Below, piece by piece: positions 1,799 to 13,036 of a DNA stretch of 13,036 bases (position 1 is the first letter of the stretch; every line of letters begins with the position of its first letter). The DNA comes from Thermotogota bacterium. Its GTDB lineage: Bacteria; Thermotogota; Thermotogae; Petrotogales; Petrotogaceae. The position numbers were made by a program, and so were the translations under genes. The notes beneath the pieces were generated by a model, which saw nothing but the letters and a program-made list of their open reading frames with translations, was not told where the DNA came from and ran no database searches. The DNA is taken from positions 1-13,036 of the forward strand of contig JBNJGY010000049.1 of NCBI GenBank assembly GCA_051748045.1, written 5' to 3'.

Positions 1799-3940
1799 AT
1801 GAAAAAATACAATTTAAAAAATTTATTATATAAGAAACCTCTTATAAGAAATTTAATATTTTTAATAGTCATTATATTAGTAATGTTTATAATGTATTTT
1901 GTTTTTTTTGAATGGTATACAAAAAAGGTTACTGATTATTATGTCAGTGAACTTGAAATTTATACAGAAATTTTAGAAAACGATATGTTAGAGATATATG
2001 AAGATAATAAAGAAAAAATTAGGGATTTAACAGAATATTATTCAAACGATTTAGAGAGTTTATCTGATTTAGGAAGAAATATTGAGCAGTTTGAAGATTT
2101 TCAGGAAATAAATTATTATCTAATAAATGAAAATGGAGTTATATACGAAACGGATTATGAAGAAGATTTAGGATATGACCTTAAAACTATTCCTGATTTT
2201 TGGCCAGAATTAAAAAATGAATTGAATGAACAAAAAATTTTAATACAACCAATTGGTATGGATAGTGCTGATGGTCATTTAAGAATTTTTTCTTATACCA
2301 AGCTAGCTAATGGAAATATTCTTGAAATGGGTTTTAAATTGAGAAGTTGTTTCTTGTGTGATATTATAAATTTTTGTGAAAATGATTCTAAGTTACCATT
2401 TTTAGATTATATTGGTTTATATAATTTTCAAAAAGTCCCTTTAACAGATAGTTTCAAAGATTTTGATTTTTCTATTTTTGGGGATAAGATTAAAAAAAAT
2501 AATGAAAAGGGTTTTTTTAAAAGATATAATATGAGGGTTTTCAGCAGTAATGTCTTTGGAAATTATAAGTTACAATGGTTAATTTTAGTTGAATATGATT
2601 TCTTTTATTCTCTTTACATACTTTTATCTTTTATAGTTGGGTTTTCCTTTTATTTTATCTATTTAATAACAAAAAATAAAAAAACAAATGACATAGTTTA
2701 TGATGATTTAAAAAATTTACACAAAGTATCAGACAATATGTCTAAGGATAATTATGATGAATTTATCAATTCTATAAAAACAAGAGAGATTAAAGAAATA
2801 AAAGATGTATTGATTTCATCAAAAGAAGAAATACAAACAAATACCGAAGAGCTAATTTCCAATAATGAAGAATTAGAAAATACATACAAAACTTTAGAAA
2901 AAACTTATAACAATTTTGATTTAGTTTTAGATGTTTTTTCAAACCTTTCAGATGATAGATTCGACGAAAAAAAATATTTAAAGAAAATTATTGATTTTAT
3001 AAAAAATTATATTCATGATTCGATATATGTGGCTATTTTAGTAAAATCACAATCTCCGTTAAACAATGGCTATATATTTCATTATAAAAATAAAGATTTT
3101 GAAGATAATTTTGTTATAAATAATTTAGATACAAAGAATATATGCACAGGAGAATCAATATATAATTTATTAGATAATAAGAACCCAGATCATAAAAAAA
3201 TAAAAAATCATATTGATGATGCTATGAATAAATTTTGTTATCCTATTATTAATAATAAACCTATAGGCTATATATTTATTGGTTTTGAAGAAAATTATGG
3301 TTCAGAAAAAGAGATAATAAATCAAATAACAAAGATTTTTAAATCTTATTATTTAATGAAAAAGTATACATATGAAGAAAGTAATTTAAAGATGAGAATT
3401 TTGAAAGTTATTTCAAAAACTCTTGATTATTATGATTCTTATACAAAAGGTCATTCAGATAATGTGGCAATATATTCTTTTAGAATTGCTAATGAAATGG
3501 GTTTAGATGAGAAAACATTAGACAAAATTTATTGGGCTGGGATATTACACGATGTGGGAAAAATATTTGTTTCTCAATCTACTTTGAATAAAAATGGTAA
3601 ACTGACAGATGAAGAATATGAAGAAATTAAAAAACATCCAGAAAAAAGTTTTGAACTAATTTCTTCTGTAGAAGGTTTAGAAGAGTATGCTGAAATAGTT
3701 AGATATCACCATGAAAGATATGATGGGAAAGGTTATCCAAAAGGTATTAAAAAAGATAAGATCCCAAAAGAATCAAGGATATTAGCGGTTGCTGATTCTA
3801 TGGATGCGATGTTAAGCACTAGACCATATAAAAAGGCTAAAAATTTAGAAGAAGCATTGATTGAATTAGAAAATAACAAAGGATTACAATTTGACCCCCA
3901 GATAGTTGATATAGCTAAAAAGATAAACTGGAACATATAA
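1799..3940 (+). CDS. Membrane-anchored HD-GYP domain cyclic di-nucleotide phosphodiesterase
   Basis: Two TM segments flank an extracytoplasmic region, followed by a coiled coil (TEELISNNEELE). The C-terminal HD-GYP domain has YTKGHS, LHDVGK, HHERYDGKGYP, ADSMDAM and RPYK. GGAG RBS at 1787-1790. Confidence 0.95.
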   Translation: MKKYNLKNLLYKKPLIRNLIFLIVIILVMFIMYFVFFEWYTKKVTDYYVSELEIYTEILENDMLEIYEDNKEKIRDLTEYYSNDLESLSDLGRNIEQFEDFQEINYYLINENGVIYETDYEEDLGYDLKTIPDFWPELKNELNEQKILIQPIGMDSADGHLRIFSYTKLANGNILEMGFKLRSCFLCDIINFCENDSKLPFLDYIGLYNFQKVPLTDSFKDFDFSIFGDKIKKNNEKGFFKRYNMRVFSSNVFGNYKLQWLILVEYDFFYSLYILLSFIVGFSFYFIYLITKNKKTNDIVYDDLKNLHKVSDNMSKDNYDEFINSIKTREIKEIKDVLISSKEEIQTNTEELISNNEELENTYKTLEKTYNNFDLVLDVFSNLSDDRFDEKKYLKKIIDFIKNYIHDSIYVAILVKSQSPLNNGYIFHYKNKDFEDNFVINNLDTKNICTGESIYNLLDNKNPDHKKIKNHIDDAMNKFCYPIINNKPIGYIFIGFEENYGSEKEIINQITKIFKSYYLMKKYTYEESNLKMRILKVISKTLDYYDSYTKGHSDNVAIYSFRIANEMGLDEKTLDKIYWAGILHDVGKIFVSQSTLNKNGKLTDEEYEEIKKHPEKSFELISSVEGLEEYAEIVRYHHERYDGKGYPKGIKKDKIPKESRILAVADSMDAMLSTRPYKKAKNLEEALIELENNKGLQFDPQIVDIAKKINWNI

Positions 3941-8958: not shown

Positions 8959-9741
8959 ATGAAAATAGGATTTTGTGGTTGTGGAAATATGGGATCAGCA
9001 ATATTAGGAGGAATTATTGAATCTAATGTTGTTTCACAAGAAGATATTTTTATACATGAACCAAGTGAAGAAAATGTTGAGAGAATATACAATAAATATG
9101 AAAGAGTTAATTTTTTAAAGTCAAATAAAGAAATAGTAGAAAAAAGTGATTTTATTTTTATTGCTGTAAAACCTTATTTGTACAAAGAAGTATTAAAGGA
9201 GATAAAAGAAAAATTAGATAGAGAAAAAATAGTTATAACTATTGCACCTGGTATTAGCATTGAAGATACAAAAAATATGATATCTAATAAAGCAAAAGTA
9301 GCTAGAACAATGCCAAACACACCAGCCCTTGTAAGAACTGGTATGACGGCGGTTTCATTTGATAAAGAGATTAAACAAGATGAAAAGACTAATTTAATTA
9401 GTATTTTAGAAGCATTTGGAGAAGTAGAAGAAATAAAAGAAAACCTCATGGATCATGTTCCAGCTGTTTCTGGTTCTTCACCTGCATATGTTTATATGAT
9501 GATAGAAGCCATGGCAGACGGAGCTGTAAAAGCAGGAATACCCAGAAATAAAGCTTATAAATTTGCAGCACAAGCAGTAATGGGTGCAGCAAAAATGGTT
9601 CTTGAAACAGGAGCTCATCCAGGTATGTTAAAAGACGCTGTTTGCTCACCAGGTGGAACTACAATAAAGTCTGTAGCTAAATTAGAAGAAAAAGGATTTA
9701 GAAGTGCTATAATAGAAGCAATGAAAGAATGTTACATGTAA
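8959..9741 (+). CDS. proC: Pyrroline-5-carboxylate reductase
   Basis: Motifs KIGFCGCGNMGSAI, AVKP, RTMPNTP, SGSSPAY and VCSPGGTTI. GGAGGA RBS. Confidence 0.98.
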   Translation: MKIGFCGCGNMGSAILGGIIESNVVSQEDIFIHEPSEENVERIYNKYERVNFLKSNKEIVEKSDFIFIAVKPYLYKEVLKEIKEKLDREKIVITIAPGISIEDTKNMISNKAKVARTMPNTPALVRTGMTAVSFDKEIKQDEKTNLISILEAFGEVEEIKENLMDHVPAVSGSSPAYVYMMIEAMADGAVKAGIPRNKAYKFAAQAVMGAAKMVLETGAHPGMLKDAVCSPGGTTIKSVAKLEEKGFRSAIIEAMKECYM

Positions 9742-9750
9742 GTTCAAGAT

Positions 9751-9778
9751 TAATTAAATTTTAACTTTCAACCGATAA
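9751..9778 (+). promoter_or_regulatory. Candidate sigma-28 (FliA/SigD) promoter
   Basis: ACCGATAA at 9771-9778 (7/8 match to GCCGATAA), with TAAT at 9751-9754 16 nt upstream (consensus TAAA-N15/16). Confidence 0.5.
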
Positions 9779-9802
9779 CATTAACACATGGAGGTGAAAG
9801 TT

Positions 9803-10165
9803 ATGAGAATTGATAGAATCAATGAAATAGAAAGAAAATATTCTGAGAGAACTCAGCCTGTTACAAATAACAGAGTAGAAAGTGTAAAAGATGATTATAA
9901 ACAATTTGATGAACATCTCCGAAGAGAAATGACAGAAGAAGAAAAAGAAAAAAACAAAAAAAATAAAAATAAAAGAAAATCTATGATTTTTTATCCTGAT
10001 ACTTTGGTTAGAAATGATATAGATTATAATAGAGTAATGTATACAAATCTTTCTGATAAAAAACAAAAACATGTAATAAAAAAAGATACATTTGAACTTT
10101 TTGCTGAAAGAAACAGCAAAATTAAAAAAGAGTCTAGAATCAAGCCAAGATATTTTAGAGGATAA
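9803..10165 (+). CDS. Hypothetical basic, charged protein (120 aa)
   Basis: Strong RBS GGAGGTGA at 9790-9797 supports ATG 9803 (MRIDRINEI) rather than 9788. It has its own terminator downstream. Confidence 0.75.
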   Translation: MRIDRINEIERKYSERTQPVTNNRVESVKDDYKQFDEHLRREMTEEEKEKNKKNKNKRKSMIFYPDTLVRNDIDYNRVMYTNLSDKKQKHVIKKDTFELFAERNSKIKKESRIKPRYFRG

Positions 10166-10166
10166 T

Positions 10167-10197
10167 AGCAAAACACCCTGACAGGGTGTTTTGTTTT
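10167..10197 (+). terminator. Intrinsic terminator
   Basis: CAAAACACCCTG-A-CAGGGTGTTTTG followed by TTTT, immediately after the stop at 10165. Confidence 0.88.
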
Positions 10198-10220
10198 AAA
10201 ATGATTTTTGGGGGGAAAAG

Positions 10221-11093
10221 ATGAATCCATTCAAGCAAATTAAAATTAGATATGTTTTTTTGGTAATACTAGGTTATATAGTTTTAAATATTTTTTTAGG
10301 TGATTATTTTGATGTTGAAAATAATATTTTAGGTGCTCTTTTAACACAAATTGGTTACCAATTGATTATATTTTTTTGGATGTTTTATGAGATGATAAAA
10401 GTTAATAAAACTGCTGACTTTAAAATACGGCATTTTTTTGAAAAAGATTATACTGAAAAAGACTTAACAACCGTTTATTTATTTTTACTATTTATAGCGT
10501 TGTTTTTTAGCAACATCATTTCTACTTCTATCATACAGTTAATGCCAGAATTTATACAAAATTATTTTGAAAGAATAATGAATGAGTACCAGGATGCAGT
10601 TGTTTTTTCACAGAACGGTTCTTTTCTGATTTCAACATTACAGTTTTTATCGATAGTTATCTTAGCACCTATTGTAGAAGAATTTTTTTATAGAGGATTT
10701 TTAATAAATAGGCTTTCATTGAAATTCAACTTGAGATGGGCTGTTTTAATATCGACAGTTTTGTTTACATTGGGCCATGGAGACATTATCGGAAGTTTTA
10801 TAAAAGGATATGCTTTTTCAATTTTATATATAAAAACTAAAAGTTTAAAATTACCTATTATTTTTCATGTTTTGAATAATTTAATAGCTTTTACCTTATT
10901 CAAAACTTTTGATTCTGTTGATGTTGAGAATCTCTATATTCCTAATTCTGTAGCGGTAATAATGTCTTTGCTAATTGTTATATCTTTTCCACTACTTATT
11001 CATTTTTTCTATATGTATAGAGTTAAAGATGAAAAAGTTTCACCATTTGAAAAAATATTTAATGGAGTTGATGAAAATGTACAAGATGAATAA
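10221..11093 (+). CDS. CPBP family (Abi / type II CAAX) intramembrane metalloprotease
   Basis: Motifs APIVEEFFYRG (EExxxR), FTLGH (FxxxH) and HVLNN (HxxxN). Multiple TM helices. Confidence 0.93.
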   Translation: MNPFKQIKIRYVFLVILGYIVLNIFLGDYFDVENNILGALLTQIGYQLIIFFWMFYEMIKVNKTADFKIRHFFEKDYTEKDLTTVYLFLLFIALFFSNIISTSIIQLMPEFIQNYFERIMNEYQDAVVFSQNGSFLISTLQFLSIVILAPIVEEFFYRGFLINRLSLKFNLRWAVLISTVLFTLGHGDIIGSFIKGYAFSILYIKTKSLKLPIIFHVLNNLIAFTLFKTFDSVDVENLYIPNSVAVIMSLLIVISFPLLIHFFYMYRVKDEKVSPFEKIFNGVDENVQDE

Positions 11094-12351
11094 ATCTGGT
11101 AATTTTGAATATATAAACACAAAAGCGAATAACAATAAATACATAACCCCTATGATTACTGATTCACATTTACATGTTATTAGTTATGGAGAAAAATTAT
11201 CTAATCCTGATCTAGAATTTAAAAGTATTTTAGAAATAAAGAATATAATTCAGAATAAATTAAAAGACAATCCAAAAAAACTTATTTTAAGAGGATGGTC
11301 AGAACCAGAAGTACCAAAAAAACAATTTTTAGATTCAATAGATAAGAATATTCCAATGATGATGGTTAGAAGATGTGGACATGTGGCAACAGTTAATTCT
11401 AAAATGCTAGAGAAAATTGATTTTTCTGGGTACGAAAGATATATTGATGAAAGAAATGGGATCATTTATGAACAAGCTTTAGAAATTGTTTATGGAGAAG
11501 TTGGTTATTACCAAAATATAGAAAAGTCTTTTAAAAAAGCCGAAGAAAAATTAATGGAAGATGGTTATGGTTTTATACATTCAGAAGATATACACGGAAT
11601 AACAAAAGATGATTTACCATTTAAAGATTCTAAAATTAAAGTTTATGAAAAAATAGCTGTAAATAATTTGCAAGAATTAAAGTTGTTTAAAAATCAAAAA
11701 TATTTTGAAGAATATAATTCAGTAAAAGTTTATACAGATGGGTCTTTTGGTGGCTGGACAGCTTTGATGAAAGATAATTATTCGGATAAAGCAACAAAAG
11801 GTAAAAAAGTATGGAATGATGAGGATTTAAAAAAGGTTCTCGAATTTTGTGAAGAAGAAAAACTACATTTGGCAATGCATGCTATTGGAGATGGAGCAGT
11901 TGAACAAATATTAAATATAGCAGAAGAAGTAAAACCAAAAGGGATGCATAGAATAATTCATTCTGCTGTTCTGCATGATAATCAATTAGACTTAATAAAA
12001 AAACACAATATAATCCTTGATATGCAACCCTCTTTTATCCCTTCAGATGAACCTATTTTAAAAAATAGATTAGGTGAAAGAACAAAAATAGCTTACAGAT
12101 TTAAAGATATTATAGATAAGAATATAAATTTATTTTTATCATCTGACGCTCCTGTTGAGGAGCCTGCTTGGATTAGATATTTCAATATTCTATCAAAACA
12201 GAATATTTCAAACAAAGATATATTAAACACTTTGATTTTTGCTCCTGAAATAATTGATGGTTTCGATAGAATAAAAGACATGGATGAAAGAAGATTAGTT
12301 TTTGAAGAAAACCCATTTGATAGAATAACAATACCAAATGTTGAAAAATAA
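11077..12351 (+). CDS. Amidohydrolase family 3 (YtcJ-like) metal-dependent hydrolase
   Basis: Motifs DSHLH, RGW, RRCGHVATVNS, K.YTDGSFG..TA, HAIGD.A, RIIH, MQP and SSDAPVE. Start probably ATG 11077 (GGAG at 11064-11067; 11071 and 11086 are alternatives), not 10975. Confidence 0.9.
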   Translation: MYKMNKSGNFEYINTKANNNKYITPMITDSHLHVISYGEKLSNPDLEFKSILEIKNIIQNKLKDNPKKLILRGWSEPEVPKKQFLDSIDKNIPMMMVRRCGHVATVNSKMLEKIDFSGYERYIDERNGIIYEQALEIVYGEVGYYQNIEKSFKKAEEKLMEDGYGFIHSEDIHGITKDDLPFKDSKIKVYEKIAVNNLQELKLFKNQKYFEEYNSVKVYTDGSFGGWTALMKDNYSDKATKGKKVWNDEDLKKVLEFCEEEKLHLAMHAIGDGAVEQILNIAEEVKPKGMHRIIHSAVLHDNQLDLIKKHNIILDMQPSFIPSDEPILKNRLGERTKIAYRFKDIIDKNINLFLSSDAPVEEPAWIRYFNILSKQNISNKDILNTLIFAPEIIDGFDRIKDMDERRLVFEENPFDRITIPNVEK

Positions 12352-12384
12352 AAAATAGCTTCCTGATTTCAGGAAGCTATTTTT
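12351..12384. terminator. Bidirectional intrinsic terminator
   Basis: AAAAATAGCTTCCTG-ATTT-CAGGAAGCTATTTTT directly after the amidohydrolase stop. Confidence 0.9.
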
Positions 12385-12541
12385 CTAATATTTCAAATAT
12401 GAGGGATGTTCTAAGGGTGATTATTACGGGCGGAGTTACACTCAACATTATATTACATCCAATAACTTAAAAAAAACTTATAAAAATCATTCCATAATTT
12501 TTGTTGGAGGTTGGGTAGCAAATTTTAATTTAGCTAAAAAC

Positions 12542-12570
12542 GAGATTTCTCCACGTTGGTCGAAATGACA
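12542..12570 (-). repeat. TGTC-tagged REP-like palindrome, short form, copy R1
   Basis: Minus strand TGTC-ATTTC-GA-C-CAACGT-G-GA-GAAAT-CTC; 24/29 identical to 12934-12962. Confidence 0.8.
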
Positions 12571-12585
12571 TGTTTAAAATTTGTT

Positions 12586-12606
12586 GTTGGATGTTGGAGG
12601 ATGGAG
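12586..12606 (+). repeat. Heptamer tandem repeat (GTTGGAN-like x3)
   Basis: GTTGGAT GTTGGAG GATGGAG. Related runs at 12503-12516 and 12772-12792. Confidence 0.6.
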
Positions 12607-12615
12607 GAAAAAATT

Positions 12616-12702
12616 GTTAAAAATAATCACAGCTGTCATTCTGAGAGAGTCACAAAGTGACGAACCGAAGAACCTCATCAGTAAATTTGCAAAGCAAATT
12701 AA
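12616..12702 (+). repeat. Long direct-repeat unit 1, containing the long-form TGTC-tagged palindrome U1 (12634-12676)
   Basis: Shares GTTAAAAATA, AGCTGTCATT, CATCAGTAAATTT and AAATTAA blocks with 12805-12893 (offset 189). Confidence 0.85.
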
Positions 12703-12804
12703 TAAGTAATTTAAAATAATAAATAGCGTTCTTCACAAGATCGAAAAAGTAGAAAATGTAAAACATTTTCTGTTGAAGGTTTATAGTTGGAAGTAAAAAA
12801 CATG

Positions 12805-12893
12805 GTTAAAAATAGCCATAGCTGTCATTTCGACTAAGATGCGTAGCATCGCATGGAGGAATCCCATCAGTAAATTTCACAAAGTGAAATTAA
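12805..12893 (+). repeat. Long direct-repeat unit 2, containing the long-form TGTC-tagged palindrome U2 (12823-12865)
   Basis: TGTC-ATTTC-GA-C-TAA-[GATGC-GTA-GCATC]-GCAT-G-GA-GGAAT-CCC, collinear with unit 1. Confidence 0.85.
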
Positions 12894-12933
12894 GCTTTTA
12901 AAACCATTCAATTTTCTTCGAAAATTTACTGAA

Positions 12934-12962
12934 GAGATGTCTCGACCTTGCTCGACATGACA
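12934..12962 (-). repeat. TGTC-tagged REP-like palindrome, short form, copy R2
   Basis: Minus strand TGTC-ATGTC-GA-G-CAAGGT-C-GA-GACAT-CTC, inverted relative to U2. Confidence 0.8.
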
Positions 12963-13036
12963 TACGCAACAGTTTTCAATACATGTTTTTACTAACAATA
13001 ATAAAAATTTTTGTACTATAATTCTCAATAGTTCAT

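Follow-up and report, generated by a model that had tools for sequence, protein, structure and literature searches.

The right-hand end of one contig from a Thermotogota draft genome is crowded with short hairpins, which raises the question of what these hairpins are and in which nucleic acid they act. The window analyzed here is the whole of that contig (C49; 13,036 bp), and the source genome, G000, is a 2.41-Mb draft in 158 contigs with a G+C content of 28%. A preliminary description of the window had reported two direct-repeat units bearing hairpins and had proposed that the array acts as folded single-stranded DNA (ssDNA). Our analysis indicates that the region 12490-13036 probably comprises four cores of the repetitive extragenic palindromic (REP) type, belonging to the CGTC/TGTC-tagged class, together with accessory hairpins, that the fold is most likely one of ssDNA, and that the copies are either orphans or served by another enzyme. 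The family is spread genome-wide, lies between genes, is absent at orthologous sites of a congener, and has stems that are under selection for folding. The closest published classes, as characterized in the text of the respective papers, are the CGTC/TGTC-tagged REPs (PMC3733652) and the Ssn-related motifs (PMC11893778); the element is thus recorded from a new host and differs in structure from other members of a known and widespread bacterial class, but it does not represent a new kind of element.

The genomes used for comparison were two congeners of G000 (G001 and G002), both of which carry the repeats, 40 relatives including a same-family subset of 24, and a phylum sample of 151 Thermotogota genomes, G000 among them, in which the genus is represented by three. 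A hidden Markov model of the repeat family, built on 20 seed copies, yielded 66 nhmmer matches in G000 at a threshold of E<1e-3. Each core consists of an unpaired TGTC tag, a 5-nt arm starting with A, the dinucleotide GA, a variable insert, a second GA, the complementary arm and a C-rich tail. A regular expression for this order (YGTC-A(N4)-GA..GA-stem), which required four or more of the five stem pairs to be Watson-Crick, matched G000 at 80 places, compared with 24 in a shuffled genome. Family stems and inserts of up to 24 nt were found in 72 of the 80, and the stems are of nine types: ATGTC/GACAT, ATTTC/GAAAT, ATTCT/AGAAT, ACCCT/AGGGT, ATATT/AATAT, ATCTC/GAGAT, ACCTT/AAGGT, ACCTC/GAGGT and ATCCT/AGGAT. 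An extra stem variant, ACTCT/AGAGT, is present in G001.

The suggestion that the stems are rewritten from copy to copy and still pair was borne out genome-wide. Among 30 aligned short cores, 98.9% of the cells pair, and both sides change in 5 of the 6 pairs; the covariation score was reached by 0 of 500 shuffles, and slid controls paired in 18-47% of cells. Such compensatory change indicates that a single-strand (intra-strand) fold is under selection. The first stem pair is A-U in all 29 distinct rows, and the second is U-A in 21 and C-G in 8. All 30 short cores carry the tag TGTC, and the 80 regular-expression matches, which are anchored on the tag and have to be read accordingly, divide into 77 with TGTC and 3 with CGTC. 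The first and last bases of the insert were found to pair as well: among the 80 matches, they are G..C in 35, C..G in 31 and A..T in 5. The two GA dinucleotides are therefore opposed, with a Watson-Crick helix on either side of them. The complete stem therefore has five Watson-Crick pairs, GA opposite GA, and one or two further pairs, that is, 8-9 positions, not all of them paired. The insert between the GA brackets measures 7-8 nt in 30 of the 72 family cores and 16-22 nt in the other 42. The tails of the 80 matches read CTC (29), CTA (16), CCC (12), CTG (5), CCA (3) or otherwise (15).

Cores usually occur as inverted heterodimers with the tags outward, and 19 of the 44 clusters in G000 hold two to four cores, the main pair being +ATTTC / -ATGTC and the second being ACCCT with ATTCT. 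After a plus-strand nhmmer match there is typically a minus-strand match that overlaps it and is more diverged, which shows that the full element is an imperfect palindrome of about 220-300 bp. Each arm is built in the same order: an optional AGAAA..TTTCT hairpin, a G/T-rich tract, an A-rich leader, the core, and an accessory module, in which CAGTAAATT precedes a hairpin made of AATTT (followed by CAC, TC or GC), a loop and the complement. At least two G/T-rich words were found at positions -90 to -25 of 32 out of 68 cores, compared with 143 of 2000 random 65-mers.

In G000, where crude calls of open reading frames (ORFs) give a coding fraction of 90.7%, 70 of the 72 cores are intergenic. Seventeen of the 44 clusters have no called gene on one side (contig ends); the 27 with both flanks lie in 11 tandem, 10 divergent and 6 convergent spacers, while the background of spacers of at least 150 bp counts 204, 127 and 41, respectively. 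Thus no preference for 3' ends is seen. Two sites were found empty in G001. The orthologue of window positions 9500-12486 is 77% identical there, and the sequence from the terminator of the upstream amidohydrolase gene through about position 12486 is kept; the next gene follows directly where the window cluster starts, the cluster beginning immediately past the last base common to the repeat-free site. The gene downstream of this empty site was not found in G000 by blastn or tblastn. At the second site, the C66 locus, G001 keeps a G/T-rich tract and its complement with no dimer between them. A third locus shared by G000 and G001 displays a rearrangement of modules and a compensatory change in the stem of the spacer hairpin. 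The earlier proposal that hairpin modules are shuffled between units agrees with these results, as mosaic modules are found both between copies and between species.

When unit 2 of the window was used as a blastn query, it was found at 23 places in G000, some of them up to 95% identical, at 2 in G001 and at 10 in G002; the rest of the 40 relatives gave only 23-32-nt scraps in three genomes. The high identity of these copies suggests a recent spread in G000. When 185,579 species genomes were searched for exact copies of the AATTT hairpin module, the only matches were in one uncultured Thermotogaceae metagenome-assembled genome (MAG), on three contigs, and on one contig of another MAG. A covariance model (R1) matched only within the genus, apart from one weak match in G013, and in 0 of 16 f2 genomes; because R1 includes family-specific flanks, this result is hardly informative on the class at large. 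The loose pattern YGTCANNNNGAN{6,10}GANNNNTC stayed at background level in four f2 genomes, and a related-locus search found no relatives of the amidohydrolase locus.

The cluster of the window is made up of the following parts, given with the upstream gene and its terminator:
10975-12351: amidohydrolase gene with a match to Pfam Amidohydro_3.
12351-12384, plus strand: intrinsic terminator of this gene, 15-16 pairs and a T-run; context, outside the repeat.
12496-12516, plus strand: first element of the cluster, a G/T-rich tract of the TGTTGGAGGTTGG type (direct-repeat families D2 and D4).
12542-12570, minus strand: short TGTC-tagged core found by the regular expression, with stem ATTTC/GAAAT, insert CCAACGTG and tail CTC; R1 scores 48.2 bits at 12537-12578.
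12581-12607, plus strand: G/T-rich tract TTGTTGTTGGATGTTGGAGGATGGAGG (families D2 and D4).
12608-12633, plus strand: A-rich leader AAAAAATTGTTAAAAATAATCACAGC, 5' of the core, part of repeat D1 and conserved among copies.
12634-12676, plus strand: TGTC-tagged core of unit 1, with stem ATTCT/AGAAC, GA on both sides of the insert and tail CTC.
12679-12700, plus strand: accessory hairpin module, the CAGTAAATT anchor and AATTTGC-AAA-GCAAATT (hairpin at 12684-12700), of a class with 69 perfect copies in the census.
12701-12750, plus strand: linker module AATAAGTAATTTAAAATAATAAATAGCG..., recurring beside copies on C41, C33 and C19, and in G001.
12751-12771, plus strand: spacer hairpin AGAAAATGT-AAA-ACATTTTCT, of a separate class (AGAAA..TTTCT, then GTT).
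12772-12796, plus strand: G/T-rich tract (families D2 and D4).
12797-12822, plus strand: A-rich leader of unit 2 (repeat D1), within the best nhmmer match (12779-12921).
12823-12865, plus strand: TGTC-tagged core of unit 2, with stem ATTTC/GGAAT (one T-G wobble), GA on both sides of the insert and tail CCC.
12868-12891, plus strand: accessory hairpin module, CAGTAAATT and AATTTCAC-AAA-GTGAAATT (hairpin at 12873-12891), with the commonest stem type (33 of 69).
12892-12909, no strand: central spacer separating the two inverted arms; in the minimum-energy fold computed for DNA, the arms to its left and right pair with each other.
12910-12931, minus strand: accessory hairpin of the inverted arm, minus-strand CAGTAAATT and AATTTTC-GAA-GAAAATT (inverted repeats I1, I2 and I20).
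12933-12962, minus strand: TGTC-tagged core of the inverted arm, with stem ATGTC/GACAT, insert GCAAGGTC and tail CTC; the best R1 match (61.6 bits).
12963-12997, minus strand: leader of the inverted arm; the minus-strand nhmmer match 12997-12890 overlaps the plus-strand match 12779-12921.
13005-13036, plus strand: flanking module with TATAAT, AAATTTTTGTACTATAATTCTCAATAGTTCAT, truncated by the contig end; it follows dimers on C14 and C19 and is present in G001 (C5).

All five hairpins of the preliminary description (12649-12661, 12684-12700, 12751-12771, 12838-12850 and 12873-12891) are present, with a closing pair of C-G in four and T-A in the fifth, and the word TCACAAAGTGA, described there as shared between hairpins, occurred twice in the repeat search. 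Two direct units were also recovered (12608-12688 and 12797-12877; 81 nt, 70% identical, spacing 189), but the region holds four cores, two per strand, and three AATTT-type hairpins, one of them on the minus strand. The core stem of unit 1 has one mismatch relative to the AGAAT of its sister copies; its 22-nt insert contains GTCAC-AAA-GTGAC (12649-12661) and recurs in sister copies on C90 and C71. The insert of unit 2, likewise 22 nt long, contains GATGC-GTA-GCATC (12838-12850), which includes GCGTAGC, and the ATGTC/GACAT core at 12933-12962 is of the commonest core type in G000. The perfect TATAAT of the 13005-13036 module was not called in the promoter scan. A hammerhead-like reading of GTC...CTGA..GAA was also considered and rejected because of a misfit at the core positions.

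None of 100 dinucleotide shuffles folds as well as the region 12600-13010, whichever strand is taken and whether DNA or RNA parameters are used (z-scores of -3.47 on the plus and -5.20 on the minus strand for DNA, and of -3.99 and -3.89 for RNA). It had been proposed that all loops are R-N-A triloops (R, purine) on one strand. The census of AATTT-type hairpins in G000 gave 69 perfect copies with 64 triloops, 59 of which are R-N-A: AAA in 24, GTA in 16, GAA in 7, ATA in 6, AGA in 3, GCA in 2 and ACA in 1. A purine occupies position 1 in 61 of the 64, position 2 is free, A occupies position 3 in 61, and every one of the 64 is closed by C-G. AAA-triloop DNA hairpins with such a closing pair have been studied by nuclear magnetic resonance. 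The R-N-A rule also holds for the GATGC-type insert hairpin, which varies in its loop only (GTA, GCA, ATA or AAA), but it fails for the 30 short cores, most of which lack R-N-A loops (e.g., ATC, AGG and TTG), and for the spacer hairpin class, whose 35 copies genome-wide include 27 triloops, 11 of them R-N-A and 13 the complementary T-N-C. The placement of all loops on one strand is true only within the piece described, as the minus-strand AATTT-type hairpin at 12910-12926 has a loop that is GAA in its own sense and TTC when read on the plus strand; genome-wide, loop polarity follows the orientation of the unit, not the chromosome strand (39 plus, 30 minus).

The statement that GNA mini-hairpins are stabler in DNA agrees with the literature. 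According to the text of a recent review, the DNA mini-hairpins GCGNAGC and GCGNNAGC are extraordinarily stable, with melting temperatures (Tm) of 71-76.5 °C, and the values given include 72 °C for d(GCGACAGC), 71 °C for d(GCGATAGC) and 39 °C for r(GCGAAAGC) (Kimoto & Hirao 2026, PMC13037366). The same words, GCGACAGC, GCGATAGC and GCGAAAGC among them, are found in the repeats: GCGNAGC or GCGNNAGC stands in sense in 22 of 30 long (A-type) core inserts, and in antisense in none of them. The review, as far as its text goes, deals with the oligonucleotide motif and with phage and plasmid origins, not with a repeat family (PMC13037366).

CGTC-tagged REPs were described by Di Nocera, De Gregorio & Rocco (2013; PMC3733652), whose text divides them into the families CGTC-1 to CGTC-4, including Neisseria dRS3 and Rickettsia RPE-4/6, and places them in five phyla, Thermotogae (K. 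olearia and M. prima) among them. As given there, the unpaired tag is CGTC or a variant, often TGTC, or CCTC; the 8-9-bp stem starts with A-T and T-A, the loop has 4-5 nt, and a 3-nt tail of consensus CCA follows, with odd loops noted in the two Thermotogae species (PMC3733652). The repeats form inverted dimers, often heterodimers, whose spacers may carry stem-loops and which sometimes lie inside longer palindromes, and the authors found no Y1 transposase flanked by CGTC repeats, K. olearia included (PMC3733652). The family in G000 resembles these REPs, in so far as they are described, in its TGTC tag, the A-T start of its stem, its short C-rich tail, its intergenic position and the lack of a flanked transposase gene, as well as in its inverted heterodimers, structured spacers and dimers within longer palindromes. 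It differs in having five pairs, GA/GA and one or two pairs in place of a plain 8-9-bp stem, and in the tail, which is CTC, CTA or CCC and not CCA. The difference in the GA form is drawn from the text of the paper, and the CGTC-3 consensus may already include that form (PMC3733652).

A possible partner for such hairpins is offered by the Ssn nucleases. SsnA is a 94-aa GIY-YIG protein which, according to the text of Chenal et al. (2025; PMC11893778), binds and cuts NTS, a CGTC-tagged Neisseria hairpin, only as ssDNA and in one orientation, is tolerant of loop changes, and makes its cut immediately upstream of the tagged hairpin. The ssn genes are typically flanked by such hairpins, and the nucleases are assigned to the CDD family cd10448 (PMC11893778). 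Like the Ssn-related motif (SRM; tag HGTC) of that paper, as described there, the present family is an oriented, tagged hairpin in many copies with a free loop identity. The NTS-ssnA-NTS arrangement also has a counterpart in the phylum, as TGTC-tagged hairpins flank small GIY-YIG genes in G123, G131 and G032, though not in G000. The GA-bracketed core is present in distant Thermotogota too, its pattern giving 55 matches in G131, 8 in G123, 4 in G127, 1 in G108 and 0 in G124, an example from G131 being TGTC-ATTCC-GA-GCGAAGC-GA-GGAAT-C. In G123, a 68-aa GIY-YIG frame (Pfam, 49.9 bits; in-frame stop after 68 codons) starts 33 nt past a core, with more cores downstream; a PDB sequence search and NCBIfam gave noise and nothing specific for this frame. 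Two fragments of the same gene were found in G131, each in an array of seven cores, whereas the putative Ssn-like gene of G032 is intact and flanked by TGTC hairpins with plain 8-bp Watson-Crick stems and CTC tails. In total, 10 of the 151 Thermotogota genomes carry putative Ssn-like genes, the frames in other genomes, among them G032, G040 and G027, measuring 101-108 aa.

An Ssn-type nuclease, or a functional analogue of one, may thus have the fold in ssDNA as its target, in view of the linkage of genes and repeats in other Thermotogota, of what has been published on SsnA and of the DNA-stable mini-hairpin words. The conserved features of the fold are the facing GA/GA, the C-G-closed R-N-A triloops and the GCGNAGC/GCGNNAGC inserts. 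No cognate nuclease gene was found in G000, so the copies would have been orphaned by a lost or unassembled gene, or would be served by another enzyme; since the 158 contigs break at repeats, a repeat-flanked ssn gene could be among the unassembled sequences. The ORFs between neighbouring clusters, inspected by eye only and with no family scan, included no look-alike of a small nuclease.

Several results weigh against this interpretation. Ssn-like genes occur in 0 of the 3 genomes of the genus in the phylum search, tblastn of the G123 protein against G000 had a best E-value of 0.52, and the only Pfam GIY-YIG matches in G000 are a 574-aa UvrC-sized frame and a 280-aa protein, neither of which lies beside repeats; the spread in G000 nevertheless looks recent despite the absence of a detected partner gene. 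The GIY-YIG genes of G123 and G131 are interrupted or fragmentary, and the Thermotogota genes are candidate homologues of SsnA (cd10448). The published SRM pattern has a single match in G000 (on C82, unrelated to the family), compared with 2, 0, 1, 0 and 1 in five shuffles; it misses the family because GA faces GA in the stem. The loops are inserts of 6 nt or 16-22 nt, longer than the 4-5 nt given in the text on CGTC REPs (PMC3733652). GCGNAGC is not enriched genome-wide (90 observed, 96 expected), the folding energies show no preference for DNA over RNA, and the non-Watson-Crick stem pairs, which are few (5 G-T/T-G versus 3 C-A/A-C), have no strand asymmetry. The folded-ssDNA proposal of the preliminary description is plausible and partly supported, owing more to family analogy (NTS/Ssn) than to the argument given there; the energy comparison that it called for does not discriminate, and no Ssn-like gene was found in G000.

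Because the apparently recent spread took place in a lineage in which no Ssn-like gene, linked RAYT or TnpB was found, a second activity that copies or maintains Ssn-type hairpins could be envisaged, or else the oriented accessory module might be an independent ssDNA signal that travels with the cores; we regard this as rather unlikely. In that case the module, in which CAGTAAATT and a C-G-closed R-N-A triloop hairpin stand between G/T tracts, might serve as a priming site, as a site that excludes single-stranded DNA-binding protein, or in the control of transforming DNA. It is also rather unlikely that the repeats act as RNA, being parts of untranslated regions or small RNAs whose hairpins stabilize or end transcripts or guide RNases, as has been proposed for many REPs. 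In favour of an RNA, none of the 100 shuffles folds as well with RNA parameters, whichever strand is taken, and Di Nocera et al. infer in their text that transcription of REPs is frequent, with their location and G-T pairs as the grounds (PMC3733652). Two short contigs of one metatranscriptome run (X3) lie on 12850-12903 and 12908-12962, and a further contig lies on the neighbouring gene (11685-11897), which is not proof of transcription; X3 covers little of the repeat, and the uncovered remainder is uninformative. Against an action as RNA, Rfam 15 has no match within 12490-13036 at E-values up to 1, the cluster sits 3' of an intrinsic terminator, no promoter-like or terminator-like site was called within the repeats, the units occur in both orientations inside one cluster, and the spacers show no bias towards 3' ends (11 tandem, 10 divergent and 6 convergent). 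In addition, the loop and insert motifs are reported, in the text of the mini-hairpin review, to be far more stable as DNA than as RNA (PMC13037366).

Transposition was considered in two forms. REP doublets forming hairpins (REPINs) are inverted doublets copied via ssDNA hairpins by a REP-associated tyrosine transposase (RAYT), and it is very unlikely that the present repeats belong to them. Inverted core doublets do exist here, and as in the REPINs and bacterial interspersed mosaic elements treated in the text of Bertels & Rainey (2011; PMC3116915), they are foldable to one long hairpin, lie in mosaic clusters and have a presumed ssDNA intermediate. G000, in which the family is most expanded, also has one Y1 transposase gene (C82; NCBIfam REP_Tyr_transpos, 79.2 bits against a cut-off of 80) that occurs in 0 of the 24 same-family relatives. 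However, the 12-bp inverted repeat that brackets this gene (GGGTCGGACCAA / TTGGTCCGACCC) is not of the present family, the word GGTCGGACC is found at just two places in G000, and G001 and G002 have the repeats without the gene. The tag is TGTC and not GTAG, Di Nocera et al. found no Y1 transposase flanked by CGTC repeats, in K. olearia or elsewhere (PMC3733652), and no TnpB (PF07282) was found in G000. In comparison with the REPINs of the cited text, the family thus differs by its TGTC tag and by a sole RAYT-like gene that is unflanked by repeats and missing from repeat-bearing congeners. Finally, miniature inverted-repeat transposable elements moved by a DDE transposase, or double-stranded binding sites or cruciforms for a DNA-binding protein, would account for a composite that is an imperfect palindrome of about 220-300 bp with insertion polymorphism between species; such an explanation is likewise very unlikely. 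Neither sharp terminal inverted repeats nor target-site duplications were definable, the termini of the composite being undefinable because its ends are mosaic. Moreover, facing GA/GA and strand-specific loop rules would be meaningless in a pure duplex, and the compensatory stem changes indicate intra-strand pairing.

With these results, a Thermotogota genus joins the hosts of CGTC/TGTC-tagged hairpin repeats. The variant found here has GA facing GA in the stem and a loop that can contain a second mini-hairpin; as the SRM pattern misses the GA form, pattern-based surveys undercount the class. A family that has apparently expanded without a detected nuclease would be a test case for whether Ssn-type repeats need the nuclease to spread, and its covarying stems and free loops provide ready substrates for studying the specificity of Ssn enzymes from thermophiles, which are of interest as ssDNA tools. 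In practical terms, the repeats break the assembly of G000, since 23 of the 66 nhmmer matches lie within 400 bp of a contig end. In a DNA run (X1), contig depths add up to 4-9 across unique sequence of the window and to a maximum of 611 over 12852-12903, a value that is not a copy number.

Other observations concern genes and sequences around the repeats. The RAYT-like gene (C82 4949-5719; L001 1444-2214) encodes 256 aa, and its 12-bp inverted repeat is perfect; matches of only 24-32% identity to it come from 13 of the 16 sister-family genomes, and the gene is probably a recent arrival in G000. The 280-aa protein (C1 74529-75368; L240 946-1788) has a C-terminal GIY-YIG match of 22.9 bits, resembles no known family in its N-terminal part, and is found in 0 of the 40 relatives. 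In G131, a 30-kb island (C1, about 539000-570000) holds 15 of the 55 pattern matches together with both fragments of the Ssn-like gene.

Within the window, GC skew tracks the gene strand, and the non-coding stretch 12387-12470, 3' of the amidohydrolase terminator, is conserved between G000 and G001 and has no Rfam match. The G/T tracts are composed of the words TGGAAG, TGGAGG and GTTGG and form, with their C/A-rich complements, the outer arms around the dimers; at one locus of G001 (C11; L231, about 2980-3110) they exist without any dimer. The tracts and their complements look like a separate, older low-complexity palindrome that hosts the dimers. The insert of unit 1, GAGAGTCACAAAGTGACGAACC (window 12645-12666), shares the word AGTGACGAA with core inserts of the GGAACGCAGTGACGAA type in G123 (L255, G123:C4, 1370-1440) and G131, which indicates that this type of insert is older than the genus.

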